A stretch of 64,000 bases of DNA from Candidatus Anstonellaceae archaeon. GTDB lineage: Archaea; Micrarchaeota; Micrarchaeia; Anstonellales; Anstonellaceae. Shown piece by piece: positions 1,651 through 58,087 of this stretch. The notes below the pieces were generated by a model. The model saw only the letters and a list, made by a program, of their open reading frames with translations, had not been told where the DNA came from and searched no databases. The stretch spans positions 2,221 through 66,220 of the forward strand of contig JAWAEW010000006.1 in assembly GCA_038891035.1 (NCBI GenBank), written 5' to 3'. Made by a program: the position numbers and the translations under genes. The number at the start of each line of letters is the position of its first letter. Positions within the stretch are counted from its first letter, which is position 1.

Positions 1651-2610
1651 ATGGATATTGAAGCCCTCCTGCAGCAGCATCTTGGAAAAAAAACAGAAGA
1701 AGCAATTCGCCACAAGATCGAGGAGTTTGGAGGGCTGCTTACAAGAGAAGCGGCAATTAGGCTGCTTTGCAAACAACATGGAATATACATTCAAAATCCC
1801 ATCAAGCTTGCTGATGCAAGTAAGACTATTTTGCCTTTCAGCTTCCGTGCAAAAGTTAGAAGGATTTTTCCTGTTCAATATTACAATGACAAGGATTACT
1901 CCGTGAGAATACATGTATATGACCATACTGCTGAAGCTATTGTAATCTTGTGGAACGAACAGGCAAAGATTGCATTTGAGCTTTGCCAAAATGACGAAGT
2001 AGAAGGGAAAGAAGCATATTTCAGAAATGGCGAGATATGGATAGGAAAAACTGGCTTTTTGAGGCTGTTGCAGCCTGCGCCACGCATGCAGGTAGAGGAA
2101 CTTACTGCAGGAGTTTGCACTGTGGAAGGAAGAGTGGGCGAAATTGAGCCAGATTATTTTTATGTTGATAAAAAGACAGGAAAGGAAAGGAAGATGTCTT
2201 CTTTTCAGCTTTGTGGAAGACAGCAGTGCAGACGGGTGGTGATCTGGATAGATGATTTTGATTATTCTTCTTATGGACTTTCTGTTGGGGACTTTGTGGT
2301 GCTAGACGGAGTGATATTCAAAAGTGGAGAGATACACTTCAATTCTAAATCAAGGCTGATAAAAAATGCAAAACGCGAAGAAGGCAGGGTGAAATCAGTA
2401 TATGTTGAAGGCCAAGAATGCATACTTGAAATAGAGAATAAAAGATTCAAAATATCATTGCCGCAGGCTTTGCAGATCTTTGGCATAATGCAAGTTCCGC
2501 AAGGTGTAAGCCCACAGACACTTATTCAAATAAAAGGAAAAGCAATGCAAGGCAGACAAGTATTGTATACAGCAAAAGAAGAAAGGTTGATCTGGATAGG
2601 TGAAAAATAA
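1651..2610 (+). CDS. RPA-like single-stranded DNA-binding protein (three OB-fold-like segments)
   Basis: ORF track starts at 1471 but that overlaps the convergent kinase gene; internal ATG at 1651 (MDIEALLQ). N-terminus 'EEAIRHKIEEFGGLLTREAAIRLLCKQHG' and OB-fold signature 'FRAKVRRIFPV...VYDHTAEAIVILWNEQA' resemble euryarchaeal RPA. Confidence 0.55.
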   Translation: MDIEALLQQHLGKKTEEAIRHKIEEFGGLLTREAAIRLLCKQHGIYIQNPIKLADASKTILPFSFRAKVRRIFPVQYYNDKDYSVRIHVYDHTAEAIVILWNEQAKIAFELCQNDEVEGKEAYFRNGEIWIGKTGFLRLLQPAPRMQVEELTAGVCTVEGRVGEIEPDYFYVDKKTGKERKMSSFQLCGRQQCRRVVIWIDDFDYSSYGLSVGDFVVLDGVIFKSGEIHFNSKSRLIKNAKREEGRVKSVYVEGQECILEIENKRFKISLPQALQIFGIMQVPQGVSPQTLIQIKGKAMQGRQVLYTAKEERLIWIGEK

Positions 2611-2629
2611 AAAAAAGAAGAAGAGTTTT

Positions 2630-3091
2630 TTAGGAGTGGTATTTGCCAATCAGTGGCTTCATTCCGTATTGTGTTTGTGGGAGCCCGTTTGGAGTTGTGT
2701 AAGATATTCGTACATCATATTCGTATGTCCCACCTACAGAGCCAGCGCCCGCACCTGAAAGCGGAATTATCCTTTGGTCTCCAGATGCGAGTACTGTCGG
2801 AGTAGAATATGAAGCATTGCCAACTGTAATGTTGGTAATTGTAAGGGTGCCAGCTGCATCTCTGTTTACTATCAAGATGCTCCCATTTCCAGAAGAGTCA
2901 AACGAGTGCTCAAGAATTCCAAAAGGCATGGCTTCTCCGCGCCAGTATGCATTTGACTGCGTAATTTTTGCATCAGATGCAAGCCCTGGGAAAAACCCAA
3001 GAAGAGCTATTGACACCAGTGCAATTATCAAAACCACTGCAAGCAACACAAGATACTCAGTTGCACCTTGCCCTTTCATATGAATATTCAT
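2630..3091 (-). CDS. archaeal type IV pilin-like protein (class III signal peptide), putative major pilin
   Basis: N-terminus MNIHMKGQGATEYLVLLAVVLIIALVSIALLG = basic residue + G, Q at +1, then ~22 hydrophobic residues (prepilin peptidase substrate pattern); mature part beta-rich with N-x-S/T sequons (NITVGNASYS). Confidence 0.65.
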   Translation of the reverse strand: MNIHMKGQGATEYLVLLAVVLIIALVSIALLGFFPGLASDAKITQSNAYWRGEAMPFGILEHSFDSSGNGSILIVNRDAAGTLTITNITVGNASYSTPTVLASGDQRIIPLSGAGAGSVGGTYEYDVRISYTTPNGLPQTQYGMKPLIGKYHS

Positions 3092-3213
3092 CTCATCCCT
3101 CCTGTTCGCCTTCGGGTTTTTAACCCTCTGTAGCAACATTCGAAAGTAGAATATAAAAAGCTTTTCGTTTGTCTTCAGCCAAAATTAAATAATAGCATGC
3201 AAAAAAACAGCAC

Positions 3214-4482
3214 ATGAAATATTTGTTGATATTTGGTCTGTGCTTGCTGTTTTTTAGTGGATGGCTTCATGCAGGCTATACGCAAAAGCTGCTGGTGCAA
3301 GTTTTTGACCAAGCACTAAGACCAGTAAGTGGTGCAGAGGTATATGTGGAGTATCAAGTAAACTCAGTGATCGGCTATGCCAAAACAAAACCAAAACTTA
3401 CATCTGAAAATGGAACTGCTGAGATTACATTCACAAGCTGGGAAGAGCTTGAGTCTCAAACAAAATATACCTACACTTTGTATGTAAAGTATGGCAGTGA
3501 ACTTAAGACTGCTAATTTGGTGGTGGAAAAACCGCCAAGAGATAGGACCTATAGCATGCAAGTTACTGCGTTTTTTGCAGTTGTGCATGTGCGCGATCAG
3601 ACTGGCAAGCCTCTTTCTGCAAAAATTACCATAGGTAATAAGACATTGATGACTGGTATTGGAAAGGATGCTGTTTTTCAGCTTCCTCCAGGCAAGTACA
3701 ATGTGAGGGCGGAAATAGATGGGACTGTGAAAAATGCTGATCTTATTCTTGACAAGGACCAGACAGTGGTAATAGAGATCCCACGCTACAAACTTGAAGT
3801 GCAAGTATTGGATGATTTCGCAAGGCCGCTTGAGGCTGAAGTAGAGCTTGAGACACAAAAGAAAAACACTATAGAAGGGCTAGTACGGTTCGAAAACCTT
3901 ACAAACGAAAGACCGCAGCTTACTGTCCGCTATAACCAAAGTTTCAAGCGCATGACTCTTAATTTGAAGACCGATGACAAAGTGCAAATAGTATTTGATA
4001 GGACTGCACCGAAAATTGCAGACATGTATCATAGCATACAAAAAAGCGGGGAAGCTGTGGTGAATGTTTACGTGCAGGAGCCTGGATCAAAGGCAAGTGG
4101 AATTGCAACCGTAGTTTTGTATTATGAAATTGGGAACATCACGTCCTCGGTTTCAGCTTACACGATTGGCTATAATACATATGAAGCCAAGATTCCTCCT
4201 GTCCCAAAGGATATGCCTGTCAGATACACAGTAAAAGTCACTGATAGGGAAGGAAACGAAGGAATTGCAAGCGGAACTTACACAATCCCAACTGAAAAGA
4301 AGAAGGATGAGAAAAAGAAGGAGGAGGGCTTATTTGACATGAATTTTGGTCTTGAACATTATGGGGCAGCATTTCTTTTCGTGCTTGCCATCATGTATGT
4401 GATAAAATATTATCAGAAAAAGAAAAAAGAGAAAGAACTGGAAAGAGAAATGGCAGAGATAACCTCGCCTCCGCCATCCTAA
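3214..4482 (+). CDS. secreted cell-surface protein with Sec signal peptide and C-terminal TM anchor + lysine-rich tail
   Basis: N-term MKYLLIFGLCLLFFSGWLHA signal peptide; repeated beta-rich modules; C-term 'AAFLFVLAIMYVIKYYQKKKKEKELE' hydrophobic anchor followed by K/E-rich tail. Confidence 0.55.
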   Translation: MKYLLIFGLCLLFFSGWLHAGYTQKLLVQVFDQALRPVSGAEVYVEYQVNSVIGYAKTKPKLTSENGTAEITFTSWEELESQTKYTYTLYVKYGSELKTANLVVEKPPRDRTYSMQVTAFFAVVHVRDQTGKPLSAKITIGNKTLMTGIGKDAVFQLPPGKYNVRAEIDGTVKNADLILDKDQTVVIEIPRYKLEVQVLDDFARPLEAEVELETQKKNTIEGLVRFENLTNERPQLTVRYNQSFKRMTLNLKTDDKVQIVFDRTAPKIADMYHSIQKSGEAVVNVYVQEPGSKASGIATVVLYYEIGNITSSVSAYTIGYNTYEAKIPPVPKDMPVRYTVKVTDREGNEGIASGTYTIPTEKKKDEKKKEEGLFDMNFGLEHYGAAFLFVLAIMYVIKYYQKKKKEKELEREMAEITSPPPS

Positions 4483-4508: not shown

Positions 4509-4617
4509 GCAGGGATGGCGGAGCCAGGTTTAACGCGCCAGACTCAAGATCTGCCTTATGGCAATAAGCAATCTGGTGACTTTAGGTCATCGGGAGTTCA
4601 AATCTCCCTCCCTGCAT
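4509..4617 (+). tRNA. tRNA-Leu (anticodon CAA) with ~22-nt intron adjacent to the anticodon loop
   Basis: Acceptor stem GCAGGGA/TCCCTGC, D-arm GCGGAGCCAGGTTTAACGC, anticodon stem CCAGA/TCTGG with loop CTCAAGA, long variable arm TGACTTTAGGTCA (class II tRNA), T-arm GGGAGTTCAAATCTCCC; extra CCTTATGGCAATAAGCAATCTG between anticodon loop and 3' anticodon stem consistent with archaeal bulge-helix-bulge intron. Confidence 0.7.
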
Positions 4618-5434: not shown

Positions 5435-6400
5435 TCACTCCCATTCTATTGTTGCAGGTGGCTTACTCGTAACATCAAAAACCACGCGATTGACATATTT
5501 TTTCAACTCGCGTGTTATCCTATTTGCGATTGATTCCAGCACTGCCGGCGGAAGTGGTGAGGCTTTTGCAGTCATTCCGTCTATGCTTTCTACAGCACGT
5601 ATTACAACGGTGTAACCATAAGCGCGGGCATCCCCAAGCACCCCAACTGATTTCATTGGGAGAAGCACTGCAAAATATTGCCACGGAAGCTGGATTGTTC
5701 CTTCTGATGCAGCTTTTTCAACTTCTTCTTCAACAATTGCACAAGCTTGTCTGATTATTTCGATTTTTTCTTGCGTGATTGGTCCTAAGATTCGCACTGC
5801 CAGACCGGGTCCTGGAAAAGGCTGACGCTTACATATTTTTTCAGGCAAGCCAAGCAAGAAAGCTACTTTCCTTACTTCATCTTTGTAAAGCTCACGGAGA
5901 GGTTCTATAAGGAACATGCCCATCTTTTTTGGCAACCCACCTACATTGTGATGAGACTTAATAGTGTCTCTAAGACCTGCTCCAGATTCTATCCAGTCAG
6001 GAGCAATCGTGCCTTGCACTAAGAATTTTGCCTTTACCTTTTTTGCTTCTGCCTCAAAGACTTTGATGAAAAGCTTACCTATTATTTTTCGCTTTTTTTC
6101 CGGGTCGGATACACCTTTTAGTGTCGCAAGAAACTTTTGGCTTGCATCGATTATCTTGACATTCACACCTGCTTCGGCAAGAGATGATTTGACTTCTTCT
6201 GCTTCATTTTTTCTCATTAGACCGGTATCTACAAAAATACAATGGACTTTTTTACCCAAGGCTCTTGTCGCAAGGACTGCAGCCACTGATGAGTCTACTC
6301 CTCCCGAAACTGCAATTATTGCAGTTCCGTCCTTTGCCGATTTCTTGATTTCTTGAATTGCTTCTTGGATGAAAGCCTCAGGATCAAACATTCGTTTCAC
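5435..6400 (-). CDS. guaAB: GMP synthase, ATP pyrophosphatase subunit B
   Basis: PP-loop 'VSGGVDSS' and GMP-synthase C-terminal dimerisation domain ending 'ATIEWE'; 4-nt gap to subunit A. Confidence 0.85.
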
Positions 6401-7518
6401 CTTTTGTGCTTCTTGTGGTGTTGCTTTCTTCTAAGTAAAAGTAAAAATGCTGCTATTGCAAAGAAAAGTCCTGCGCCAAGCAAGGCAAAAATCAAATTGC
6501 TTTCAATATCGGACTTTAACCTATTTTCCTTTGTTGGCTCCTGCTGCTGTTGCTGTGGCTGGGTTTGGTTTATTGCCAAGCTGTCTTTGTCGTTTGAGAT
6601 TTTGGATTCAGACATTGGTTCTGTAGCTTCGTTTTCTATTATTAGCTCGTAAGATAGGTTCTGATATGAAAAAATATATTTTCCTGCTTCTGCTGCATTC
6701 AGATACGCTGTTCCATTTGAAGATGTAGTTAGAAATATTTGCCCTGATGGAGTTTCTGCCTGGATTTTTTCGCCTTCAAGAGGCTTGCTTCCATTGAGAA
6801 GCTGTAATGCAATAAGTGAGTGCGTTTTGTTTTCAGATGTGACAATTAAGGCAATTTTTGGCGGCTCTTGCGGCTTTGCTTGCTCAAGCACTACATTAAG
6901 CTGTGCAAAATCTGACAAATAAAGCTGTTGAATTTCCTCTTTTGGAATAAAGCCTTCTGCTTCAAATGCTATCCTATATTGCCCCTCTGGCAAAAAAGAA
7001 ATTAGGAAATATCCGTCCTTGTTTGGAATATTGTCCTTTTTGTGGTTGAGTCTTGCTATCACTTTTGAATCGGAGTACAATGTGATTGAAGAATTGGAAA
7101 AGTCTTTGGGTCCTTCTATTCTGCCCCAAATACCTGCATATGCGATCTGCTCGCGCATGATATAGGTGATGTTTCTATTCATATCTATCTGAACGAGATG
7201 GACGTGGGTGGGGTATCCACCTCTTTTCAGAATTACAAAATAGCTCCCAGGCAATACTTCAAATGTGGCAGTTCCGTCTTTTCCTGCTTTTGAAGAGGCA
7301 ATTTCTACTCCTTCGTGAAGGATGGAAATATTTGTTCCAACTGCAATTGTGTCAGGAGGGACAAGGACTTTTATTTGGAGAGTGTAGGAAGAAACCAAGG
7401 ATAGAAGGCAAAGCACTAAAGTCACCCATAATCTATTCACGAAACCACCTATCGAATCTAATTGTGCAACCAATAAAAGGCTACTGCCTCCAACATGCAA
7501 TAGTAATTGCCTCTGCAT
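6397..7518 (-). CDS. secreted surface protein with carboxypeptidase-regulatory-like beta domains, Q-rich linker and C-terminal TM anchor + basic tail
   Basis: hydrophobic signal-like segment [16 protein letters not shown] (true start may be internal GTG near 7440); C-term '[32 protein letters not shown]'; co-directional and directly downstream of four pilin-like genes. Confidence 0.5.
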
Positions 7519-7822
7519 GGCTGTTTCTCCAAACTGGAAAAGTAATGCTGGTCTTGCTGCCTCCTAAGTACGCGCAGGTTGAAAGCTCTTCTGCTTGAAA
7601 GCAGATGCCAGAAAGATTGGAGATAAGATGGAGCCTTTCGTTCAGAACTGCTTCATCTGAGAAAGATGAGGAATCGATTAGCACTTGCACGGCATCAAAG
7701 CACAGGAAAAGGTCTGGCTCGCTGGCGGTTTTGGCTTCAAAGGTATGAAGTAAAAGGGCAGCCTGCACTAAAAGGATAAATGAGGCTACTGCTTCTAATG
7801 ACATTGCAAATGCTTTTTTCAT
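7481..7822 (-). CDS. pilin-like protein with class III-type signal peptide
   Basis: Preferred start MKKAFAMSLEAVASFILLVQAALLL (KKA then hydrophobic stretch with E at +6); ORF track start 7882 overlaps upstream gene. Confidence 0.4.
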   Translation of the reverse strand: MKKAFAMSLEAVASFILLVQAALLLHTFEAKTASEPDLFLCFDAVQVLIDSSSFSDEAVLNERLHLISNLSGICFQAEELSTCAYLGGSKTSITFPVWRNSHAEAITIACWRQ

Positions 7823-8274
7823 GACACACACACCGTAAGAAGTGCAATTTTTCCTGAAAGAAAGGCAAGCCTTTTTGTGCAATAAGCTTGTTTCCCGTCA
7901 TTACCCGCAACCCAATCCATCATTGTTTCATCCTCAAAAGCAAGGGAAGCTTTGACTGATGACAGACCAAATGCATCTCTTATAGGCCTCAAATCAAAGT
8001 CTGTCTTGCCTTCATAAAGAGAATCCAAAAGGACATACGAAATCCTTATCGAAAGTAAAGTGTATGATACTGAATTTGAGTAATATGAGAAACTTTCTGA
8101 AGCAAAATAGAGAAGCTGTAGGAATGTCAAAAAGATGATGAGCGTTGAGAGGAACGCAATCGAGGCATCCAAAGAAAAAAACGCTTTAATGAAGTTTGAT
8201 TTGCACATAAAGCTTTCCCTCCGCATCCACTGAAGCGTTGTGAAGGAGCCTCTCACTGACATTTTTGTTGCCAC
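7819..8274 (-). CDS. pilin-like protein (class III-type signal peptide), start uncertain
   Basis: N-terminal region ...MCKSNFIKAFFSLDASIAFLSTLIIFLTFLQLLYF: basic residue + A followed by ~25 hydrophobic residues; several alternative in-frame starts (8262, 8226, 8208). Confidence 0.4.
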   Translation of the reverse strand: MATKMSVRGSFTTLQWMRRESFMCKSNFIKAFFSLDASIAFLSTLIIFLTFLQLLYFASESFSYYSNSVSYTLLSIRISYVLLDSLYEGKTDFDLRPIRDAFGLSSVKASLAFEDETMMDWVAGNDGKQAYCTKRLAFLSGKIALLTVCVS

Positions 8275-8533
8275 AGTGAAAAATTTGGCTCATATTTATG
8301 CAAAGCCACGAAAAGTCTTCATATGACTTTATGTGCGCCTTTGAAACGGCAGCAGTATCAAGCAAGAAAGCAGCTTTGGCAAGCTGGATTTTTTGGTAAT
8401 TTGCATTTATCTTTTGGGCTTCGCTTTCTACAAGATGATTTGCTGAAAGAGAAAGTATAGAGATGGCTAAAAGTAGGGCAAAAAAAGAGACAAGGGCTTC
8501 AATTGAGGATTGGCCACGAAATGTTGGCTGCAT
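8186..8533 (-). CDS. pilin-like protein with class III signal peptide
   Basis: MQPTFRGQSSIEALVSFFALLLAISILSLSA: RG|Q cleavage-type motif, E at +5, 20-residue hydrophobic helix. Confidence 0.55.
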   Translation of the reverse strand: MQPTFRGQSSIEALVSFFALLLAISILSLSANHLVESEAQKINANYQKIQLAKAAFLLDTAAVSKAHIKSYEDFSWLCINMSQIFHCGNKNVSERLLHNASVDAEGKLYVQIKLH

Positions 8534-9083
8534 TAAAACTTACCTCCTCTTCCGGAAGGCGAAATGCTGCACCTTGCCCTAAATGTTCTACAAAAATGGA
8601 AAAACCAATCGAAGGAAGATGAATACTTTGCTGGCTTAAATCTATATAGATTGACTTTAGGCATTCGCTGCTTGAGATGTGATGGGTGCTTTTTGGTAGG
8701 ACTGGTTCTTTGAGGCTTTCCATTTCTTCTGACACTAGTCGAATTTCATCGAAAGAGGGTTGGCCGCACCAAAGCTTCACCGAAAAACCTGCTTGTATTA
8801 TTTCTTGCTCAAGATTTATGAGTGCTTGGTGCACTTGCTTTTTTGCTTCCGCATATGAGTCAGTTCTGGCGGCAAAGGAAATTAAGATGCCTTTTTCTGC
8901 AGCTTCCGATGCTGCAGCATATATTGCTTTTCTGATGGCAAATGCCTCAAGCTCCACTAATTTATATTTCTCAACAGAAAATGCTGGCTTTTTTGCCTGA
9001 AGCGACAGTGAAGCAAAAGAAAGCAAAGTGAATAGGAAGATAGAGGCAACAAAAAATGTAAACAGACCTCTTGTCATCTCCAA
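8499..9083 (-). CDS. pilin-like protein with class III-type signal peptide
   Basis: MEMTRGLFTFFVASIFLFTLLSFASL: RG followed by hydrophobic helix; first gene of a four-gene overlapping operon. Confidence 0.45.
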   Translation of the reverse strand: MEMTRGLFTFFVASIFLFTLLSFASLSLQAKKPAFSVEKYKLVELEAFAIRKAIYAAASEAAEKGILISFAARTDSYAEAKKQVHQALINLEQEIIQAGFSVKLWCGQPSFDEIRLVSEEMESLKEPVLPKSTHHISSSECLKSIYIDLSQQSIHLPSIGFSIFVEHLGQGAAFRLPEEEVSFNAANISWPILN

Positions 9084-17020: not shown

Positions 17021-17350
17021 TTAGCATGAGATGGTAGTTCCAGGTGGAGCAAGAAGTTGCAAGACTTTGGGGGAGACAGTTGCAATCAAAATGCCTATCA
17101 AAGCTCCTGTAAGGCAAGAGGTTGCCCACACATTTGCGCGAGCCCGCGTTTCTGCTCCCATCATTTGACCTGTTGCATAAATGACTGCAGAAAGAACAAT
17201 CATCGTCATGGCGGCAATAGGTATTAAGTCTTTAATTCCGGTGCAAAGTTGCTGTAAGGCGTCTTTGAGTTTCTGTGTGGGTGGTTGAGAGGTAGCAACG
17301 ATAGTTGCCACTAAAAAAACCAATATGATAGCTAACACTTTTTGACGCAT
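17021..17350 (-). CDS. small secreted membrane protein, VirB2/TrbC-pilin-like topology
   Basis: 109 aa: signal peptide MRQKVLAIILVFLVATIVATS, then two hydrophobic helices separated by short polar loop (GQMMGAETRARAN). Confidence 0.4.
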   Translation of the reverse strand: MRQKVLAIILVFLVATIVATSQPPTQKLKDALQQLCTGIKDLIPIAAMTMIVLSAVIYATGQMMGAETRARANVWATSCLTGALIGILIATVSPKVLQLLAPPGTTISC

Positions 17351-34157: not shown

Positions 34158-35156
34158 TTAAATGGTGTCTATGAATGAGAGGAAAACTTGTGCAGAAAAC
34201 AGCCTGTAAAGTTCAAGCGAAGCAATGGCGCATATTATAACAGATACAAGAGGATAAAAGATGAGGTCTATCTTTGCCATCCAGAGTGCATAGTTGCTTG
34301 TTGGGAAAATTATTTGCACTTTTCCTGGAAAGTCTCCTTCTGCCATTTGGCTTATCTTGGATTTCACTGCTGCAGGCTTGTCCAGCTCCAAAAGAGGCAG
34401 CGAAGCAAATGATTTGTTGAAGTTTTCTGCTACCTCTGTTGCCTGCCAAGTCGCCTCAAGTGCCTTGCTTATTTGGAATGAATGAAGAAAAATGAGAGGA
34501 TAGACCATATAGGCTGAAACCGAGAGTGCCATTACTGCTGCTCCTAGCCTGCGCGTGGCAAAAAAAGTTCGCAAAAGAAGGCCTGCAGGCAAAAACAAGG
34601 CAAGGGCAGAGTCGCGGACTGCGAGCGCGATTTCAAGTTCAAATGCAGCGATTGCTGCCGTAGTTGAAAATTCTGCTGCAAGCTCTGCCAGCTGCTGGGA
34701 GTAAGATCTTAATGCAAAGAAAGGTTCGAAAAGTATTTCCCCTGTTTTCAGTTGAATTGAGCCTGCAACCCCCGCAATATCTGCACATCTGTAAAGCTGA
34801 GCGGCCAAAGAGGAGAATGAATTAGCATAAGAGTAAAGGAAACATGAATAAAAGGAAAAAGGAGAACTTGTTGGGGCATGTATCGGAGGGCAGACAGGCA
34901 ATGCCTGCGCTGGTACCAGAGAGGAGACTGAAGCGTCCGCAATTGCTGCAAATGAGATGATGCCGCCAAGCATTGCAGCAGAAATGATTCCTTGGGCTAT
35001 CTCTTCTGCTCCAACCAGCCTTAACCTCTTTATGCCAAATCCTATTCCTATTCCAAAAACAATTCCGCCGATGAGTATAGAGATGGTTGCGGCGATTATA
35101 GCTATGTCAAAGCTGCCTGTTTGGATTTGAAAATCTTGCAGTAACGGCATAAACAT
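34158..35156 (-). CDS. polytopic membrane protein (hypothetical)
   Basis: 332 aa with N-terminal TM 'IAIIAATISILIGGIVFGIGIGFG' and several further hydrophobic helices separated by Ala-rich soluble segments. Confidence 0.45.
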   Translation of the reverse strand: MFMPLLQDFQIQTGSFDIAIIAATISILIGGIVFGIGIGFGIKRLRLVGAEEIAQGIISAAMLGGIISFAAIADASVSSLVPAQALPVCPPIHAPTSSPFSFYSCFLYSYANSFSSLAAQLYRCADIAGVAGSIQLKTGEILFEPFFALRSYSQQLAELAAEFSTTAAIAAFELEIALAVRDSALALFLPAGLLLRTFFATRRLGAAVMALSVSAYMVYPLIFLHSFQISKALEATWQATEVAENFNKSFASLPLLELDKPAAVKSKISQMAEGDFPGKVQIIFPTSNYALWMAKIDLIFYPLVSVIICAIASLELYRLFSAQVFLSFIDTI

Positions 35157-35675
35157 TTATTGGCTGATGAATTTTGCGACTATGACTGCGCCGATAGCCG
35201 CAAGTAATGTGTCAATGAATACCACCAGAGGCAGAAGCAAAAAGGACAATAAAGTTGAAATTCCTGCTCCAAATGGTGCAACTTTTGGGAAAAGTACCCA
35301 TGAAACGATAAGAAGCAGTGCAGAAAATGAAGACCCGAGAAATCCTGCCAAAGCTCCCGCTGCTGCGGCTTGCTTGAGTGTAATTGGCCTTTTTTTTATC
35401 TTTTCGAGTGCCAATGCAGCAATAGCCCCTGCTACCAAAGGCATGGCGCACACAATAGGAACAAATACTAAGGAAATGAGATCATATTTTGGAAAAAGCA
35501 ACACTGATAATTCAGAAATTGCAAAAAAGCCAGCTAACAAAATCGCACCTACAATACTTGCTACCAAATATTCTGCTATTTTTCTTAGCATGCCTGCAGG
35601 AATAAAAGAAAGCATTGATTCATCTGTGACCTGTTGCACTTTTATCGTCGGCAATTCAATCACCATACTTTGCAC
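35157..35675 (-). CDS. membrane protein (4 TM, hypothetical)
   Basis: 172 aa; four hydrophobic helices; adjacent (1-nt gap) to downstream membrane protein. Confidence 0.45.
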   Translation of the reverse strand: MQSMVIELPTIKVQQVTDESMLSFIPAGMLRKIAEYLVASIVGAILLAGFFAISELSVLLFPKYDLISLVFVPIVCAMPLVAGAIAALALEKIKKRPITLKQAAAAGALAGFLGSSFSALLLIVSWVLFPKVAPFGAGISTLLSFLLLPLVVFIDTLLAAIGAVIVAKFISQ

Positions 35676-37388: not shown

Positions 37389-40300
37389 TTATAACTGTGG
37401 CTCATTTGCCTTTGGAAGCTGCTTTTTTTCCTTCTCCTTTCTTGAGCCTTCAAAAAATATCCAAGCAGCCAAGAGGATGAAAATGACTGATGCCAGTCCA
37501 AGGCCTATCGCTTTTATATCCAATTGTGGCTTTCTAGAGAGAATTGCATTTGCTGTTCGGATGGCTTTTTCGGAGGAGACTAACGAGTCAGCATAAAGCC
37601 CTGCTTCAAAAAACTCTTCTGATTTTGAAAGCTCTTGCTTCAATTGAACTACTTCGTCTTCCCTGGCAGATCCGCTTGCCTCCTCAACTGCAAGCTGTGC
37701 TACTTGCAGAGATGACTGTGCTGAAGATTTTAGCTGAAGCAGTGCCTTGTCAATCGTCTCCTCAAGTTGCAAGATTTCCTGCAAGGAAAGATTCACCTCT
37801 GAGAGGACTTTGAATGGATCTTTCTGCTTTGCAGAGATTCTTTTTTGGGCTGCATCCAATTTCTCTTGTGCATCGGAAGGCATGATGGAAAGTTTGCGCT
37901 TTGTTTGCGAGGAAAGAGAAGAATATTGTTGGGCATACTGCAAAAGTTTTTCTTCTATTGCGCTTTTGCGCTTTGTAAATTCGGCTTTCAAAACTTCAGC
38001 CTCTTCTGCTGCAGCTTGCAGTTTTAACTGCTCAATTTTTTCTGAATTTTCTATCAGCACTGCTGCAAGGGCCGCTCGCTCAAAGGATGAAAGAAAATCA
38101 CCTTTTGTATAAAGCACGAATGCTTCGCTTATTTGCTCTTGGGCCTGTGCTGGAGGACTTTTCATGGAAGATAGCGCCTGTGCAGTAGAAGAAGCTGTTT
38201 TTGATGCAAGGGTTGCAATTGATGAAGTAAATTGGTTGTATGATTTGCGAAGAGTTGATACTGCTTCACCTGCTTTGCCTTGGTCAAACAATAGCTGGGC
38301 CTGGTTTTTGGCATCAGACAATGCAAAAATAAGCGAGGACAGCTGTGCGGCCTTAGAAGTTGCATTTGCTGAAAGTAGTCTGTTTATAGACTCGTTAGCA
38401 ATAGATAGAGCTTGTGCTATTTTGGCGCTTTCACTTTCAAATTCAAAATGCATTGGGATTTCGATGGATCGGGGCATGAGTAAAAGAAGTGAGAGGGCCT
38501 CTTCGGTCTTGTTTTGCTGTAAAAGAAGCTTTGCCTGAGAAAGAATTGTCTGTAGGCTGCTTTTGTTGGAAAAGGTTGTCTGAAGCTCTGCTTGCAGCAA
38601 AGCCTCATCTGCAGCTGAAGCAAGACTGTTTATAGTGAAAGTTGCAAGGAATTGTAAGCTTTGGCTGCTTTGTGGTAATTCAAATGAAAAGCTTGCTTGG
38701 GTATTTCCTCCAAAAGAGACAAAATTCTGTTTTGAAATTTTATGCGTGCCGATTGGAACAATTGAGAAATTAGAGGCGCTAAACGGCTCGTGAAGGAGGA
38801 CGGTTGCCTCTTCACAGCCAATGGCAATGTCACGCACTTCAACCACATATGAAATTTTTGCTGCGGTGCTGCTTTTTTCAAATGAACTTTCCTTTTTTAT
38901 GACTTTGAAAGGCTCGAGCAGATAGTACTTTATAGTAAGCAAGTGTTGTCCTGCAGGGACTCTTTCTATTTTGCCATAAATTTGTGGATGTGGCACATTT
39001 ACAGACTCAAGCCTATAGGAAGTTCCTGAAAAGTGGGCGTATGCCTCTTTGGAAGGGCCAGCTGTGCTTTCTTGGATGAAAAGAACGGGTAGAAAAGAGG
39101 ATGCAGAAAAGCTTATTGAAAGCTCGATTTCTGCCTCTTGTGGAAATGCTTTCTTGCATTTTTGAAAAGATGAGGTCTTTTTTGTTGGAGAATACTCTTT
39201 TTCGAAACGGAAGAAAAATGACTGTTGCGGCGAGACGGAAGGGACCACTATAGTGGTTTGACCGTCCTTGTAAAATGCATCAAGTAAGGTACCTTCTGTT
39301 GCTTCTGAGGAGTAAAGCGGTATGCTGGTTTTGGCTGAAAAAGAAATTGGAGCTGTTGATGAGAAGTTAGACGGGTTTGAAGTAAGTAGTGCTATCTGGG
39401 CTTTTTGGGTTTGTCCAAGCACAGGGGGCGGGATTAGCTCTAATGGTTTGACATTTTGTGAAAGCATAAAAGAAAGGAAATCCGGTATTCTGTTTTGTTT
39501 TTTTGCCTTCAACTTGGTCAATTCAGCTTGGATTTCTTTGAGTTTTCCTGCGGCTTTTTCGAACTTACAGTTGCAGCCATCAAAGTATAAACCAATTGAA
39601 TCTATTTCTTGCAACGCAAATGCGTCCTGCTGCCTCAAAACAGCAGCATCCTGAAGCAAGCGGCAGTAATCTTCTTCTATATGACTGTAGTGCGCCTCAA
39701 GTAACAAAAGAACCTCGTTTTTTTGCTCATAAAGTAGTTTAAGTAGTTTGTCGTGAAGTTCTTCTTTTGCTGTTAAAAGGAGGGAGGACTTGAAAAGACC
39801 TTCCAGCTCTCTCAGCTGCTCCTTATAGTAAGAAACATCCAATCCGTCTTTTTCTGCCGCATTTAGTAAGTCTTTAAGCTGGGTGAATGCTTGCCTAACT
39901 GTATTGCTGGTGTCTGCAATCTGGCTGCTTTCGGCAAGCAAAATGGCTCTTGATGCGGATTCGACTGCAGATGCGTAGGCCTTGTATTTTTTGCCCAAGG
40001 TCTGTTCAAGAGATGCCTGGGCGTATGCCTTCTTTGCTTCTTCCAGAGCTTTTAATGACTGAAAAGAAAGGCTAGAGGCTTCAAGAGAGCTTACTGAAAA
40101 GTTGATTTTTGATTCTGCCTCTGAAATTGCCTTTTCTGCAATCTTTTTTTCTTCATCTACAGCAGCAACTGCAGCTGAATGGACTTTGGAAAGTGAAAGG
40201 ATTGCGTTCGCAGCTATTGCTTCGGAATCTTTTGCTGACTTTATGGCAATTGCAAGGTAATCTTTCATTTTTGATGATTTTGCCTTTTGAGCCTCTTGAT

Positions 40301-41408
40301 ACATTTGCTTTGCCTTTTCATACTGGGCCTCGGCTTGAATCAGCCCGGCTGCGACTCCCGAAAATTCTGGGCCGACAACCATTTTATCTGCTGCAAAAGC
40401 AGGCTCTCCGATTAGAACAATTTCTTCCTTTTTGAGCTCATTAATTTTTGCTGAAAGCTGCTGCAGTGAAGCTTCTGCTGCAAACTCTGTATTGAGATAT
40501 TCAGACTCCATTTCTTTTTTTGCTTGCGACAGTTCCTTGTAAATTTTGAGGAGAGACCATACTGCAGAATATTCTCCATCACCTGCAGTAATCTGAAGAT
40601 AGGATCCGAAGCTGATGTTTGAAAAATCAGGCATATGTGGCTTGGATGCAAAGTATTCAACTATAGCATCTGAAGATTTTTTCTGGCGTTGGCAGAAGTT
40701 TGAAAGAGAGGTGGATTTGGACTTTGCATGAAGGAAAGGATCTTTTGCTGCTCCAGAGTACTTTGGACTGCCTGCTCCAGCATGCTCCAGCTCGTCCAGA
40801 AGACTTTGGGCTAGAAAGGCTGCTTCTAAGGCTGCGGCATTTGCATTTTCATATGCATCAGCGGCTTTGCTGAGTGTGGCTGAGTAATAAATTGGGAAGT
40901 AGAATGAATAAACGGATACATCTGCAAGCCGTATAGCTTTGTAAGCCAAAGCTGCCTCAAAAAGAAATGGAAAGGCTGGAAGGTAAATAAAAGTAAATGA
41001 AAAGAGTGCGATGTTTTCCAAATTGTATTCCACTTCTTTTAATGCATCTTTTGCACTTTTCCAGTAATTGTAAGAAATTGCGTACGCCTCTTTTGCATCT
41101 GCGATTGCCTGAGAAGCCGCCTCCATCTTTACTTTTACTTTTTCAACTTCGCGCGAGTTTTCCAAGGAAAGAGAAGAGCGCAGCTTTTCCCATCCCACCA
41201 ACGAAACATTTGATATCTCTAGCGTTTTTGTAGAATTAAAAAACTCAAGCGAATAGAACTTTAGTCCGCCGAAGTCATAAATGTAAGGGTTTGAGTTAAT
41301 ATATGAAGAAAGAGTCCAAAACCTTTCAAGCGGTGATGGGTTTATGCACTCTGTCAGGCTGGCAAATGAAATGCAAGAAAGGAAAATGAAAAGCCAAGCC
41401 CATTTCAT
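37389..41408 (-). CDS. giant (about 1340 aa) secreted Ala-rich coiled-coil surface protein with C-terminal TM anchor
   Basis: N-term MKWAWLFIFLSCISFASL signal peptide; >1000 residues of Ala/Leu/Glu/Lys/Ser-rich predicted coiled coil with beta-rich central region; C-term 'AIGLGLASVIFILLAAWIFFEGSRKEKEKKQLPK'. Confidence 0.6.
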   Translation of the reverse strand: MKWAWLFIFLSCISFASLTECINPSPLERFWTLSSYINSNPYIYDFGGLKFYSLEFFNSTKTLEISNVSLVGWEKLRSSLSLENSREVEKVKVKMEAASQAIADAKEAYAISYNYWKSAKDALKEVEYNLENIALFSFTFIYLPAFPFLFEAALAYKAIRLADVSVYSFYFPIYYSATLSKAADAYENANAAALEAAFLAQSLLDELEHAGAGSPKYSGAAKDPFLHAKSKSTSLSNFCQRQKKSSDAIVEYFASKPHMPDFSNISFGSYLQITAGDGEYSAVWSLLKIYKELSQAKKEMESEYLNTEFAAEASLQQLSAKINELKKEEIVLIGEPAFAADKMVVGPEFSGVAAGLIQAEAQYEKAKQMYQEAQKAKSSKMKDYLAIAIKSAKDSEAIAANAILSLSKVHSAAVAAVDEEKKIAEKAISEAESKINFSVSSLEASSLSFQSLKALEEAKKAYAQASLEQTLGKKYKAYASAVESASRAILLAESSQIADTSNTVRQAFTQLKDLLNAAEKDGLDVSYYKEQLRELEGLFKSSLLLTAKEELHDKLLKLLYEQKNEVLLLLEAHYSHIEEDYCRLLQDAAVLRQQDAFALQEIDSIGLYFDGCNCKFEKAAGKLKEIQAELTKLKAKKQNRIPDFLSFMLSQNVKPLELIPPPVLGQTQKAQIALLTSNPSNFSSTAPISFSAKTSIPLYSSEATEGTLLDAFYKDGQTTIVVPSVSPQQSFFFRFEKEYSPTKKTSSFQKCKKAFPQEAEIELSISFSASSFLPVLFIQESTAGPSKEAYAHFSGTSYRLESVNVPHPQIYGKIERVPAGQHLLTIKYYLLEPFKVIKKESSFEKSSTAAKISYVVEVRDIAIGCEEATVLLHEPFSASNFSIVPIGTHKISKQNFVSFGGNTQASFSFELPQSSQSLQFLATFTINSLASAADEALLQAELQTTFSNKSSLQTILSQAKLLLQQNKTEEALSLLLLMPRSIEIPMHFEFESESAKIAQALSIANESINRLLSANATSKAAQLSSLIFALSDAKNQAQLLFDQGKAGEAVSTLRKSYNQFTSSIATLASKTASSTAQALSSMKSPPAQAQEQISEAFVLYTKGDFLSSFERAALAAVLIENSEKIEQLKLQAAAEEAEVLKAEFTKRKSAIEEKLLQYAQQYSSLSSQTKRKLSIMPSDAQEKLDAAQKRISAKQKDPFKVLSEVNLSLQEILQLEETIDKALLQLKSSAQSSLQVAQLAVEEASGSAREDEVVQLKQELSKSEEFFEAGLYADSLVSSEKAIRTANAILSRKPQLDIKAIGLGLASVIFILLAAWIFFEGSRKEKEKKQLPKANEPQL

Positions 41409-41422
41409 ATTAAATTCGCCGA

Positions 41423-42055
41423 TCATACAAGCGGAGAGAGGATGCGCACATCTACTTTTCCGCCCGTTTTCTCTTCTACAGCCAGCTTGAATTTTTCTGG
41501 GTCTGCTTTAAGTTCTTTCAGATAGTTGTAGTGGATTGGGATTACGATTTTTGGCATTATTGCTGCCGCTGCTTGGGCAGCTTCAATCTCATTCATAGTG
41601 TAAGTTCCACCTATTGGCAAAAGCGCAATGTCGCATTTATAGCTTGACATTTCAGGAATGAAGTCTGTGTCACCTGCAAAATACACGGATGCCGATTTGA
41701 ACCTTACGATATAGCCTGCTCCTGCACCTTTTGGATGGAAAGGTTTGTTTATGTTGTATGCATGAACAGCTTCGATTGTTGCGTTTCCCACATTTTCTTT
41801 TTGGCCTATTTCAATTACCCTGCACGGGAGCTTGCATCCATGCCCTATCAGAACTGTGCTTGGTTTAGTGATGGATGGCGCTTGAACACAGTGATCAAAA
41901 TGGCCGTGGGAGTAAAGAATGACATCCGCAGGCTTAGCTCCTTTTGGAAGGACAAACGGGTCAATGTATATGGCCATGCCTTCTGCTTCAATCAAAACAG
42001 ATGCATGACCAAGCCAAGTAATCTTAACACCTGAAAAAGAGGTGCTGCTTGCCAT
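41423..42055 (-). CDS. MBL-fold metal-dependent hydrolase
   Basis: 'ILYSHGHFDHC' metal-binding motif; 210 aa. Confidence 0.7.
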   Translation of the reverse strand: MASSTSFSGVKITWLGHASVLIEAEGMAIYIDPFVLPKGAKPADVILYSHGHFDHCVQAPSITKPSTVLIGHGCKLPCRVIEIGQKENVGNATIEAVHAYNINKPFHPKGAGAGYIVRFKSASVYFAGDTDFIPEMSSYKCDIALLPIGGTYTMNEIEAAQAAAAIMPKIVIPIHYNYLKELKADPEKFKLAVEEKTGGKVDVRILSPLV

Positions 42056-45546: not shown

Positions 45547-47949
45547 ATGGAGATTGTGACAAGAAGGGCAATGCTTTTAGATGCGGATTATACGATAGTT
45601 GAAGGCAGGACTGTTGTTAGGCTGTTGATGAAAGGAAAACGTTTTTTTCGGCTTTATGACTATTATTTGCCTTATTTTTACTTGGATGCCCCAAAAAATG
45701 CTGAAGAGCTGATAAGAAAGGTTCGCGTTCAAAATGAAGGAAGACAAGTCACTCCAGTAAAACTTGAATGGGTTAAAAAAAGCGTTTTTGGCCAGGAGCG
45801 TGACATCTGGAAAGTGTACTGCGAGAGGCCTTCGGATGTGCCGAAAATAAGCAAAGCACTGCCTTATCCTTCTTATGAAAACGCAATTCCATTCGGAAGG
45901 AGATATTTGATTGATAAGGGGCTCTCTCCATTTACTACACTAGTTTACAAAAGGAAGGGGAAGTTTCTCATTGAGATAAAGAAAATTCTTGACAGAAAGG
46001 TCCCGCTTAGGACCATGTCTTTTGACATAGAAACCTACAATCCGCAGGGAACTCCACGGCCCGACCAAGACGAAGTGATTATGATAAGCTATGAAATTGG
46101 GCATACGGGGGAAAGAAAGGTAATCACCAGCAAAGACGTCAAAAGAGATTTTGCAATCGTATGCAAGGATGAAAGGCAGATGATTGAAAAGTTTCTTCAA
46201 GTGATCAGGGAAAATGACATTGAAGTGCTGTTTGGTTACAACAGCACTGTGTTTGATTTGCCATATCTTAAGGCAAGAGCAGATGCTAACGGATTGAATT
46301 TTGGGATTGGACGGGATGGTGGACCTTTTAGGATGAGAAAGCATGGGATAAGGAATGTTGCAAAAATCGTAGGCAGGATACATGTGGATCTTTATCCACT
46401 TGTCCGATTTATGGGTTTTATAGGAGCATTCAAGGTGAGCAAATATAGCTTGGAAAATGCGTATGAAGAACTAACTGGAAAAAAGAAGTTGATGGTTCAG
46501 AAACTGGATATTTGGAAGATGTGGGAGGACGAAAATCTTGTAGGCAAGCTTGCAGACTATTCGCTTTTTGATGCGCAGGCAACCATGGAGATAGGTAAGA
46601 TTTTGCTTCCACTGGAAATAGAAATGAGTAATTTGACTCGACTGCCTCTTTTTGACACAGTAAATGCAACGGCTGGCCAGCTTGTCGAATCTTTGTTGAT
46701 GCACAAAAGCACACAGAATAATGCAATAATTCCTAACAAGCCTGAGGATGCAGTTGCGCATGAAAGAGAGCTTGGTCCAATAAAGGGGGCTTTTGTCAAA
46801 ATCCCGCAGCCCGGGATTTATGAGAATCTAGTAGTGTTTGACTTTAGAGGTCTTTACCCTTCTATTATCACCTCACACAATATTGACCCTTTTACCTTGA
46901 ATCCACCAAGCTCGGTTCCGGACTCTGACTGCTATATTGCACCGAATGGAAGTCGCTTTTTGAAGAGCCCGAAAGGACTTATTCCTATGGTGCTTGAGGA
47001 ATTGATAGAGATGAGAAGCAAGCTCAAAAAGCGGTTGAAAGAGATTCAAAAAGACACACCGGAATACGAAATGCTTTTTGCACGTGTGCAGTCGCTAAAA
47101 ATACTTGCAAATTCATATTATGGATATCTGGCTTATCCGCGCTCAAGATGGTATTCCAGAGAATGTGGAGAGGCAGTGACGGCCTGGGGAAGGCATTACA
47201 TTCAAGATACTATAAGAAAAGCAACGGAAGCGGGTTTCGAAGTGCTATACAGTGATACTGACTCTGTTTTTCTTTTGCTTGGGAAAAGAATGAGAGAGGA
47301 TGCTCTTTCCTTTATGGAAAGCATCAATAGGCAGTTGCCTAAGGATATGGAATTGGAGCTTGAGGGATTTTATCCGAGGGGGCTTTTTGTAACTAAGAAA
47401 AATGCAGAAGGCGAAGGAGCCAAGAAAAAATATGCTTTAATAGGGGAGGATGGAAGGATAAAAATACGTGGCTTTGAGCTTGTGAGACGCGATTGGTCGA
47501 ATATAGCAAAGACAACACAAAAAAGAGTGCTTGAGGCAATTTTGAAGCATGGTAGCAAGGAAATGGCTGTTAAGATTGTGAAAGAGACGATCGAACAGCT
47601 GAAAAAAGGAAATGTTCCGATCGATGATCTGGTAATTTATACACAAATACGTAAAGACCCTCGGAAATACGATGTTAAATCTCCTGAGCTTTCTGCAGCA
47701 CAAAAGGCAATAGCTGCAGGCATTCCGATAGAAAAGGGGAGTGTAATTGGATATGTGATTACAAGAAGAGGGACGAGCATCTCGGAGAAAGCAACCCTTG
47801 CAGAGCTTGCAACAGATTATGATCCAAACTATTATATACAAAACCAGGTGCTTCCTGCAGTAATGAAGATATTGCAGGAGCTAGGATACAGCGAGGATGA
47901 TTTGAAATTTGGCGGGAAGCAGACCGGCCTCTCCTCTTTCTTAGAATAA
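45547..47949 (+). CDS. polB: DNA polymerase, family B
   Basis: exo motifs 'FDIET' and 'YNSTVFDLPYL', polymerase motifs 'SYYGY' region and 'YSDTDSVFL'; 800 aa, no intein. Confidence 0.9.
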   Translation: MEIVTRRAMLLDADYTIVEGRTVVRLLMKGKRFFRLYDYYLPYFYLDAPKNAEELIRKVRVQNEGRQVTPVKLEWVKKSVFGQERDIWKVYCERPSDVPKISKALPYPSYENAIPFGRRYLIDKGLSPFTTLVYKRKGKFLIEIKKILDRKVPLRTMSFDIETYNPQGTPRPDQDEVIMISYEIGHTGERKVITSKDVKRDFAIVCKDERQMIEKFLQVIRENDIEVLFGYNSTVFDLPYLKARADANGLNFGIGRDGGPFRMRKHGIRNVAKIVGRIHVDLYPLVRFMGFIGAFKVSKYSLENAYEELTGKKKLMVQKLDIWKMWEDENLVGKLADYSLFDAQATMEIGKILLPLEIEMSNLTRLPLFDTVNATAGQLVESLLMHKSTQNNAIIPNKPEDAVAHERELGPIKGAFVKIPQPGIYENLVVFDFRGLYPSIITSHNIDPFTLNPPSSVPDSDCYIAPNGSRFLKSPKGLIPMVLEELIEMRSKLKKRLKEIQKDTPEYEMLFARVQSLKILANSYYGYLAYPRSRWYSRECGEAVTAWGRHYIQDTIRKATEAGFEVLYSDTDSVFLLLGKRMREDALSFMESINRQLPKDMELELEGFYPRGLFVTKKNAEGEGAKKKYALIGEDGRIKIRGFELVRRDWSNIAKTTQKRVLEAILKHGSKEMAVKIVKETIEQLKKGNVPIDDLVIYTQIRKDPRKYDVKSPELSAAQKAIAAGIPIEKGSVIGYVITRRGTSISEKATLAELATDYDPNYYIQNQVLPAVMKILQELGYSEDDLKFGGKQTGLSSFLE

Positions 47950-48813
47950 ATATGTCAAGATGTCCCCAAAGAGCAAGGCAAAAAGAAGACCAAGCAAAAG
48001 ATGTGGGAGAAAAAATGGCATTTTTGTATAGACAATCACTTCTCTTATACGGGCTGCTTTAAGCTTGGCAATTTGTTCTTTTGTAATCACAGGCTTAAGC
48101 GAAAGCTTTCTTACAAGTTGCTGATTCATAAGCTCAAGCGCAAGCACGTCTTCCTCTTGCAGCAAAGAGACTTTCACTCTTTGTGCCATTGCTTCCTTGA
48201 TTTCTTTTTTGAAGAATGAGAAAAAAAGCAAGCTTACGAAAAGGAAAGCGATCAACAAAATAAATGCTTGAGAGATTCTGCCTGGCAACATGAACAAAGC
48301 GATGTTGAAGGCGGCAAATGACAAGGATAACGCAGCAAGCCCAACAAATTTTTCAAGCGAAAAGGTGATTTTGCCTTTCTTTGCAAGCTCTGTGACATAT
48401 GGAAGAAAACGTAAAAGCATATGCAAAATGAAAAATATGCTTGCCGGGACAAGCACTGAGATGATAAATGGATATGGTGCGGTTTTTCCTTCTGCAAAAA
48501 AGGGCTGTGGAGCATATGGCAAGGCAATAGCAATTGCTGAAAGCACAAACATGTCTGCGCCCCCGATTTGACCTGCTTTGTAAAGGAGGAAAGAGAGAGC
48601 AAAAATTGCGGCACCAAACGCAAAAGCATGAAAGGTGGCTGGACTGAAAAATATAAAGTTCAAAAATATCGCAGCCGCTAAAAAAGCGTAGACCAAGTTG
48701 TTTGGAACCCATTTGTTGTTAAATAAGTCAAAATAAGCAGATGCTGCAGTGAACAAAACAGAAACAATTACCCTAATTTCAATGCCTGGAATTTGGCTTG
48801 GCGAAGAAAACAT
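47941..48813 (-). CDS. prepilin/preflagellin peptidase (A24 family, PibD/FlaK/EppA-like)
   Basis: 290 aa polytopic membrane protein with the two catalytic Asp contexts 'SAYFDLFNNKWVPN' and 'GQIGGADMFVL'. Confidence 0.6.
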   Translation of the reverse strand: MFSSPSQIPGIEIRVIVSVLFTAASAYFDLFNNKWVPNNLVYAFLAAAIFLNFIFFSPATFHAFAFGAAIFALSFLLYKAGQIGGADMFVLSAIAIALPYAPQPFFAEGKTAPYPFIISVLVPASIFFILHMLLRFLPYVTELAKKGKITFSLEKFVGLAALSLSFAAFNIALFMLPGRISQAFILLIAFLFVSLLFFSFFKKEIKEAMAQRVKVSLLQEEDVLALELMNQQLVRKLSLKPVITKEQIAKLKAARIREVIVYTKMPFFLPHLLLGLLFALLFGDILTYLF

Positions 48814-50022: not shown

Positions 50023-50122
50023 ACTTACTTTAACTCTTCTGAGGAGGATGATTGAAAAAGTATTATAAATAAGATGGATTAAAGAAAAAATGGTAAAATG
50101 TGGTTTTTATCAGGGTGAAGGT

Positions 50123-57616: not shown

Positions 57617-57667
57617 ACAGCAAGAAATAGCAGAAGACGTATAAAAGGCATTGTGGAAAACGAAACC

Positions 57668-58087
57668 ATGGAATTTGAGCATGCGTCAGATGTCCAGCAG
57701 AAGGTTGAGGAGATTGTATCTGTTTTGTCTTCAAGCTCAAAAGTAGCTGAATTTAGGCATATTAATCAATTCAGAATAATTTGCATGCGATCCAGAGGTT
57801 CAAAGGCAAATGCTTATGCAAGGATTTGGAACCTGCCTATGATCTGGCAAAAGGCACTTTCGGTTGGAGCATTTTACATAATAGAAGTAATAAGCGATCA
57901 TTATGATTCTCTTGATGAAGAGCAAAAAGAGAAAGTCCTTTTACACGAACTTATGCATATTCCAAAGACATTTTCAGGTGCGCTTCGGCCTCATAATGGC
58001 AAAGTAAAAATTAACCGTCAAACTGTGGAGAAGCTTTATAGGATATATCTAAAAGAAAAAACGGCTGAAGCGGTGGGTTCAAAATGA
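57668..58087 (+). CDS. putative Zn-metallopeptidase (HExxH; SprT/DUF45-like)
   Basis: 'VLLHELMHI' zinc-binding motif in 139-aa protein. Confidence 0.45.
   Translation: MEFEHASDVQQKVEEIVSVLSSSSKVAEFRHINQFRIICMRSRGSKANAYARIWNLPMIWQKALSVGAFYIIEVISDHYDSLDEEQKEKVLLHELMHIPKTFSGALRPHNGKVKINRQTVEKLYRIYLKEKTAEAVGSK

Follow-up and report, generated by a model that had tools for sequence, protein, structure and literature searches.

Micrarchaeota, which are DPANN archaea of the ARMAN type, are dependent on touching the cells of their archaeal hosts. Electron microscopy has revealed pili-like connections, and their genomes have been found to contain type IV pilus loci. To our knowledge, no pilin has yet been assigned to the host-contact filaments of Micrarchaeota. 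In the micrarchaeon Mia14, two type IV pilus systems were described, one of them of the Methanococci/Thermococci type, together with a single FlaK-like peptidase, and the key components of the Mia14 pilus are common to many Micrarchaeota (PMC5498576). The processing of prepilins follows a few rules, namely a charged residue at position −2, Gly, Ala or Ser at −1, and a leader placed ahead of a hydrophobic domain (PMC4371748). The Epd pilins of Methanococcus maripaludis carry the sites KGQV, KGQI and KGQL and are cut by the dedicated peptidase EppA, which needs Gln at +1 (PMC4371748). Archaeal pilin genes that stand alone are typically those of major pilins and are prone to tandem duplication (PMC4858521). 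In Haloferax volcanii, the pilA genes are unlinked to pilB and pilC, and each of the PilA proteins is able to act as the major pilin (PMC4371748).

The gene considered here is located on the minus strand at 2630–3091 of a 64-kb stretch of Anstonellaceae DNA, which was analysed as a whole and is referred to below as the window; it encodes 153 amino acids and ends in a TAA stop codon (2632–2630). We are confident that its product belongs with the type IV pilin-like proteins. It is probably a type IV prepilin, and most likely provides the main structural subunit of a pilus that this Anstonellaceae archaeon would use for adhesion or host contact. The longest open reading frame on this strand spans 2630–3139 and comprises 169 amino acids counted from the first ATG, and the protein translated from the ATG at 3091 begins with MNIHMKGQGATEYLVLLAVVLIIALVSIALLG and reads MNIHMKGQGATEYLVLLAVVLIIALVSIALLGFFPGLASDAKITQSNAYWRGEAMPF from its first residue. 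The true start is likely 3091 rather than 3139, because a Shine-Dalgarno-like GGAGGG (3102–3097) lies 5 nt 5' of it, because the leader counted from this start agrees with the family, in which 93 of 146 members have leaders of 6–7 residues, and because a TATA-like TTTTTATAT (3159–3151) crowds the ATG at 3139, which is separated from the box by no more than some 12 nt and is a poor start since it is too near to follow the transcription start. The TATA-like box and the Shine-Dalgarno-like motif (3097–3159, minus strand) are putative signals, read from the sequence, that would drive expression of the prepilin; scanners for sigma-70 promoters are inapplicable to archaea. RNA structure at the 5' end of the window's own prepilin gene was not significant (z = −1.7). 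The upstream neighbour (3214–4482) is divergent and the downstream neighbour (1471–2610) convergent, so that the gene must be monocistronic, as the initial annotation had stated. Starting 13 nt past the stop codon, a T8-A-T5 run (2603–2616, minus strand) overlaps the end of the convergent gene and is likely an archaeal termination signal. An identical pilin ORF is present on a Logan contig from the run SRR27730023.

The prepilin starts with MNIHMKG↓QGATEYLVLL (the arrow marks the predicted cleavage site), i.e. a leader of seven residues with Lys at −2 and Gly at −1, followed by Gln at +1 and Glu at +5. The leader MNIHMKG (3071–3091, minus strand) was assigned as a class III signal peptide based on its sequence, the processing rules (PMC4371748) and the statistics of the −2/−1 positions in the family, where 136 of 146 members carry KG (81) or RG (55). 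A prepilin peptidase is predicted to cut after Gly7, and the mature protein would begin at Gln8. Directly after the cleavage site follows a hydrophobic H-domain of about 20 residues, YLVLLAVVLIIALVSIALLGFF, that contains no charged residue and is helical in the AlphaFold model. According to the alignment and the model, the mature N-terminal module QGATEYLVLLAVVLIIALVSIALLGFFPG (2984–3070, minus strand), with Glu at +5, consists of the hydrophobic α1 helix and closes with a conserved GFFPG kink. Among 32 aligned homologues, 24 of the 29 residues of this module are invariant, and both Gln +1 and Glu +5 of the mature N-terminus Q-G-A-T-E are invariant in the same alignment, which is the pattern of EppA-type substrates. 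The description of this region in the initial annotation as an archaeal prepilin N-terminus with a class III signal peptide is thereby borne out, and the N-terminal sequence quoted there is found exactly as given when translation starts at 3091. A search against the class III signal family (DUF361) had also been suggested there: the Pfam model Class_IIIsignal (PF04021) does match the prepilin over profile positions 2–24 (E = 5e-4), but the score of 20.3 bits lies under the gathering score of 23.7. Several homologues of the prepilin carry precomputed PF04021 matches, and a search of NCBIfam with the prepilin gave no match.

The mature domain had furthermore been described as beta-rich and as carrying sequons in the string NITVGNASYS, and both statements hold. 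An AlphaFold2 model built from the 32-sequence alignment (pLDDT 80) has a "lollipop" shape made up of an N-terminal helix and a beta-sandwich, with helices at residues 8–33 and 35–49, a break between them that falls at the conserved GFFPG, and ten strands distributed across residues 57–150. The globular beta-sandwich domain (residues 51–153; 2633–2941, minus strand) is delimited by these strands, which are modelled with a pLDDT of about 85–90, and by Foldseek. The string itself is present and contains the sequons N87 (NIT, 2833–2831) and N92 (NAS, 2818–2816), to which N69 (NGS, 2887–2885) has to be added. Across the family, the globular domains contain a mean of 3.5 sequons compared to 1.8 expected from composition-preserving shuffles, a roughly two-fold enrichment that is consistent with selection for N-glycosylation. 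Judged from these motifs, the globular domain of the prepilin is probably N-glycosylated; no oligosaccharyltransferase was seen within the 64 kb of the window.

When the model was compared to the PDB with Foldseek, the type IV pilus subunit of Pyrobaculum calidifontis (8fk7) ranked first (E = 1.6e-4) and the pilin of Sulfolobus islandicus (6nav) third, and subunits of archaeal type IV pili or archaella took six more of the top 13 positions. The archaellins in the list, 9eq7 and 5tfy from H. salinarum and M. hungatei, ranked under the pilins, and the soluble domains of FlaF and FlaG (5tug, 4p94, 6pbk) ranked under the full-length pilin and archaellin chains. The TM-scores of these matches are low (0.3–0.4) because the helix of the model is kinked or differently oriented and because the fold they have in common is a generic beta-sandwich. 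A profile search of the PDB with the prepilin family returned only noise (fibronectin at E = 0.56) and detected no solved pilin.

At E ≤ 1e-3, homologues of the prepilin fall into 1,366 clusters when grouped at 90% identity and into 1,152 when grouped at 50%, and most family members are 147–175 amino acids long. The number of these clusters, the best homologue at E = 1e-92 and a dN/dS of 0.037 argue that the reading frame is not a chance one. All named protein matches come from Micrarchaeota or Anstonellaceae with the exception of one contig in a bacterial bin, and a scan in which each GTDB species was represented by a single genome yielded 79 loci, for which every title that names a phylum reads Micrarchaeota and a few say "archaeon". 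One NCBI record labels a homologue "class III signal peptide-containing protein", and the family is an uncharacterised one within a known protein class, the archaeal type IV pilins. In the alignment of 32 sequences, which are 51–82% identical to the query, nearly all residues from Q8 to P35 are invariant, as are D40, A41, Q45, Y49 and W50, and the beta domain is variable. Many genomes encode seven to nine proteins that have the N-terminal module (residues ~5–61) in common and differ in their C-terminal domains; in one subfamily among them, the mature protein measures about 200 amino acids. No other member of the family is as widespread or as well conserved as the form with a mature length of 146 amino acids, which often occurs in 2–4 tandem copies in relatives (loci L026, L032, L034 and L035).

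The closest genome (locus L005) carries its pilin at 8001–8459. The two pilins are 98% identical in protein sequence, compared to 69–96% for the neighbouring genes, and 88–94% identical in nucleotide sequence over most of the gene, compared to about 80% in the flanks. The dS of the pilin gene is 0.32, about four times lower than that of seven neighbouring genes (1.07–1.59), and its dN/dS given above compares with 0.019–0.183 for the neighbouring genes. The prepilin gene is under strong purifying selection, and its low dS would fit either codon selection under very high expression or a recent recombination event. The order of the divergent neighbour, the pilin gene, the convergent gene, which encodes an OB-fold/RPA-like protein, and a PfkB gene is kept in about 20 loci, down to a pilin identity of about 50%. 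We infer the status as major subunit from the stand-alone gene, the high conservation, the tandem duplication in relatives and the low dS.

For the favoured reading as a type IV pilin precursor, the following course of events is proposed. The basic leader MNIHMKG and the hydrophobic helix would insert the prepilin into the membrane via SRP/Sec, and a membrane aspartyl prepilin peptidase would cut after Gly7 to yield a mature pilin beginning with QGATEY and carrying Glu at +5. The obvious candidate for this step is encoded at 47941–48813 (minus strand), a protein of 290 amino acids with about eight TM segments that matches Pfam Peptidase_A24 with 32.6 bits (gathering score 26.5) and carries the Asp motifs YFDL and IGGADMF; a sequence search of the PDB with this protein gave no match. 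An ATPase of the PilB/FlaI type together with a PilC/TadC platform would then pull the subunits out of the membrane, the invariant N-terminal helices would stack in the core of the filament and the variable, probably N-glycosylated beta-sandwich domain would be turned outwards. At 54004–56328 (plus strand), 51 kb from the prepilin gene, the window encodes a divergent ATPase of the secretion/pilus-assembly superfamily (774 amino acids) with the Walker A motif GLKGVGKT, a Cys-rich N-terminal segment and long extensions. It matches TadA (5.8e-17), FlaI (7.6e-11) and VirB11 in NCBIfam and CpaF (8e-11) and GspE of A. fulgidus (2oap, 9e-6) in a sequence search of the PDB, a search of Pfam returned nothing, and on the basis of these matches it is a possible pilus assembly motor. 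The ATPase gene stands alone, with no PilC-like partner adjacent, and no match to a PilC/TadC platform (T2SSF/TadC) was found among the tested ORFs of the window, in which two polytopic ORFs at 34158–35675 had no family match. A regular-expression search for Walker A motifs across 83 loci turned up no secretion ATPase in the 8 kb around any of the pilin paralogues.

The alternative that survives best, although we regard it as unlikely, is that the prepilin is a minor pilin or pseudopilin, i.e. a low-abundance primer or tip of a filament or a component of a short periplasmic piston for secretion or DNA uptake. It gains some weight from the seven to nine proteins per genome that share the N-terminal module, the subfamily of about 200 amino acids among them, since any of these could be the major subunit. 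Against this stands that it is the 146-amino-acid form which is the most widespread and conserved, syntenic in about 20 loci and tandemly amplified in relatives, and that the gene is separate from a four-gene cluster of minor-pilin-like appearance. This separation from a minor-pilin operon had been pointed out in the initial annotation and can be confirmed, as the four ORFs lie 4.4 kb away at 7481–9083 (minus strand). They encode the pilin-like N-termini MEMTRG↓LFTFF (8499–9083), MQPTFRG↓QSSIEAL (8186–8533), NFIKA↓FFSLDAS (7819–8274) and MKKAFA↓MSLEAV (7481–7882), the latter two preceded by further residues, and are followed downstream by a protein with a CarboxypepD_reg domain and a C-terminal TM helix (6397–7518, minus strand). 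The cluster as a whole (6397–9083, minus strand) was delimited by sequence and synteny; its pilin-like ORFs have no Pfam or NCBIfam match, co-occur in five to nine related loci and, from their sequences, look like a minor-pilin set.

It is distinctly improbable that the prepilin is a surface protein outside any filament, which would use its class III signal for membrane insertion or anchoring only, or would be an S-layer-binding protein similar to FlaF or FlaG. Sugar-binding "bindosome" proteins of Sulfolobus use a class III signal, domains of FlaF and FlaG are among the Foldseek matches, no PilC was found nearby, and the conserved neighbour at 3214–4482 is a SlaB-like membrane stalk protein. 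However, a near-invariant N-terminal helix including Glu +5 is the signature of helix packing in a filament core and not of a simple anchor, the globular domain is too small for a substrate-binding protein, and full-length pilins and archaellins outrank FlaF and FlaG in Foldseek. That the protein is an archaellin is extremely improbable and was rejected. Archaellins likewise have a class III signal and a lollipop fold, and those of H. salinarum and M. hungatei appear in the Foldseek list, but the prepilin has no archaellin match in Pfam or NCBIfam, no arl or fla genes are present in the window, Gln at +1 and Glu at +5 form an Epd-type processing motif that is not processed by the flagellin peptidase FlaK (PMC4371748), and Micrarchaeota were reported to be without archaellum genes (PMC5498576).

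The divergent neighbour of the pilin gene (3214–4482, plus strand) encodes 422 amino acids with weak Pfam matches to Big_1 and CarboxypepD_reg. The protein starts with a signal peptide and ends in a C-terminal TM helix with a Lys-rich tail; between them, the AlphaFold model (pLDDT 86) shows four Ig-like beta-sandwich domains in tandem, and Foldseek relates it to adhesin stalks and to the S-layer stalk protein SlaB (8qox_B). It might serve as an anchor or adhesin or as a stalk of the S-layer. A homologue adjoins the pilin orthologue in about 19 distinct contigs of Micrarchaeota, but this adjacency may reflect conserved gene order rather than a functional link, since the housekeeping PfkB and the OB-fold genes are equally syntenic. 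The two neighbours with CarboxypepD_reg domains (3214–4482 and 6397–7518) were considered as possible paralogues, which was rejected (BLASTP E = 0.21).

Several other features of the window deserve mention. At 4509–4616 (plus strand), Rfam recognises a tRNA of 108 nt (48 bits) that was missed by ARAGORN, presumably owing to an intron; identity to L005 reaches 93% in this region, compared to about 80% in the surroundings. The window includes housekeeping genes for a two-subunit GMP synthase, PheRS alpha, Cdc6, a family B DNA polymerase, Pus10, SRP54, GatD/GatE, GGGP synthase and the Suf system. Standing alone between the genes for a Na+/H+ exchanger and NFACT, a gene at 17021–17350 (minus strand) encodes 109 amino acids with three hydrophobic segments and weak matches to conjugative pilins of the VirB2/TrbC type (NCBIfam TrwL, 3.7e-6; Pfam TrbC, 5e-4), and its product may be a DNA-import pilin of the Ced/Ted type. 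An ORF of 1,345 amino acids at 37389–41426 (minus strand), with hydrophobic segments at its N- and C-terminus and without a Pfam match, probably encodes a giant surface or S-layer-type protein. Two plus-strand genes, at 57530–58087 and 50090–50872, encode a protein whose domain is named "putative phage metallopeptidase" (PF18894, 6.6e-23) and a small protein of the HTH_17 type; they sit among housekeeping genes and may be remnants of a mobile element.

In relatives, the 5' end of pilin genes harbours an additional element. At least nine other metagenome-assembled genomes of Micrarchaeota carry an insert of 48, 51 (the commonest length), 54, 57 or 111 nt at the 5' end of pilin orthologues or paralogues, which doubles the codons of the cleavage site as direct repeats in the arrangement M..[KR]G-QGA(T/I)(Q/E)-[insert]-G-QGATEYL. 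The insert forms a pair of hairpins, and the real G-Q-G-A-T codons supply the 3' strand of the second one. In 16 sequences, 90% of the cells of this structure pair, compared to 36–43% for slid partners; double-sided changes occur in 11 of the 19 pairs, and none of 500 shuffles reached the observed covariation score. The lengths of the insert are always multiples of three and stop codons are lacking, so that it evidently undergoes translation, and the resulting peptide shows no conservation in sequence. Where orthologues that have the insert are compared to those that lack it, the difference is a clean indel of 51 nt, and single pilin genes sometimes contain copies in tandem. Examples are found at L013 7950–8021; L018 2311–2382 and 2992–3063; L053 2669–2800, 4212–4289 and 4905–4976; L055 1889–1959; L077 7944–8015, 11021–11095 and 11490–11561; L080 7788–8018 and 11088–11318; L108 10311–10382; and L142 1859–1927.

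With a covariance model of the insert, 1 Mb of loci yielded 22 instances at E < 1e-4, and the 64-kb window yielded none at E ≤ 1. The insert also occurs in three other pilin-like families (RG↓QATIEML, RRA↓QAAVEML and G↓QSAMEYL), where the direct repeat matches the codons of each gene itself, and in two non-pilin genes, in-frame in a LeuRS gene and in a gene for a C-terminally anchored surface protein. Searching Rfam with the insert matched no family, and when metagenome contigs were scanned with a 14-base pattern, most matches were due to chance, and the covariance model confirmed only two of 80 loci. A canonical bulge-helix-bulge intron was rejected because two 3-nt bulges around a 4-bp helix could not be placed by hand, and because the multiples-of-three lengths and the lack of stops argue for translation. 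In-frame selfish palindromic elements are known from Rickettsia. The insert may be such an element, a repeat-flanked switch that can be excised, or a cis-regulatory RNA. A more far-reaching picture, to which we assign a low probability, would have the pilin as the host-contact filament subunit of a two-gene surface module, together with a stalk protein of the 3214–4482 type, and the output of the family switched by the insert, which would act either as an excisable phase-variation element or as an RNA masking the codons of the cleavage site. The insert is more unusual than the pilin gene of the window and merits a separate study.

With respect to the window's own gene, the family extends a known class and reveals no new mechanism. 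Being restricted nearly to one phylum and having a near-invariant N-terminus, it offers a concrete candidate for the subunit of the filaments of Micrarchaeota, and the search motif K/R-G↓QGATEYLVLLAVVLI could be used in proteomics, antibody work and cryo-EM of contacts between host and symbiont.

Compared to described families and systems, the likeness is of several kinds. The Q-x-S-x-E-x-x-x-L motif of PF04021 (formerly DUF361) is fitted by QGATEYLVL at all positions but +3, where Ala replaces Ser; the PF04021 model spans the signal region only, and no Pfam model spans the globular domain of the pilin. In structure, the flagellar-like pilus of P. calidifontis (8fk7) and the pilus of S. islandicus LAL14/1 (6nav) are built from subunits of similar size (131–136 residues) that likewise consist of a helix and an Ig-like beta-sandwich. 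Sequence identity to these subunits is, however, 18–19% at TM-scores of 0.3–0.4, sequence profiles do not detect them, and the GFFPG kink after the TM helix is a feature of the model of the Micrarchaeota pilin, unlike 8fk7 and 6nav. With PilA1–PilA6 of H. volcanii, the Micrarchaeota family shares the pattern of paralogues in which a near-identical hydrophobic N-terminal domain is combined with varied C-terminal domains. The PilA proteins belong to another lineage and are cleaved at D/R-A↓V-S, without Gln at +1 or Glu at +5. The Epd pilins of M. maripaludis, with EpdE (MMP1685) as the major pilin and EppA as the peptidase, differ in that the major pilins of this system are very small (about 70 amino acids; PMC4858521), whereas the mature Micrarchaeota pilin has 146 amino acids and a full beta-sandwich domain. 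The likeness in sequence that was found lies in the signal motif, and the candidate peptidase encoded in the window is an A24-family protein of 290 amino acids. Within that motif, the prepilin has the same K-G↓Q site with Gln at +1 and Glu at +5 as the Epd pilins, and in both systems the gene of the major pilin, as which the prepilin probably serves here, stands alone and away from the assembly genes, and its product carries N-glycosylation sequons (PMC4858521; PMC4371748).
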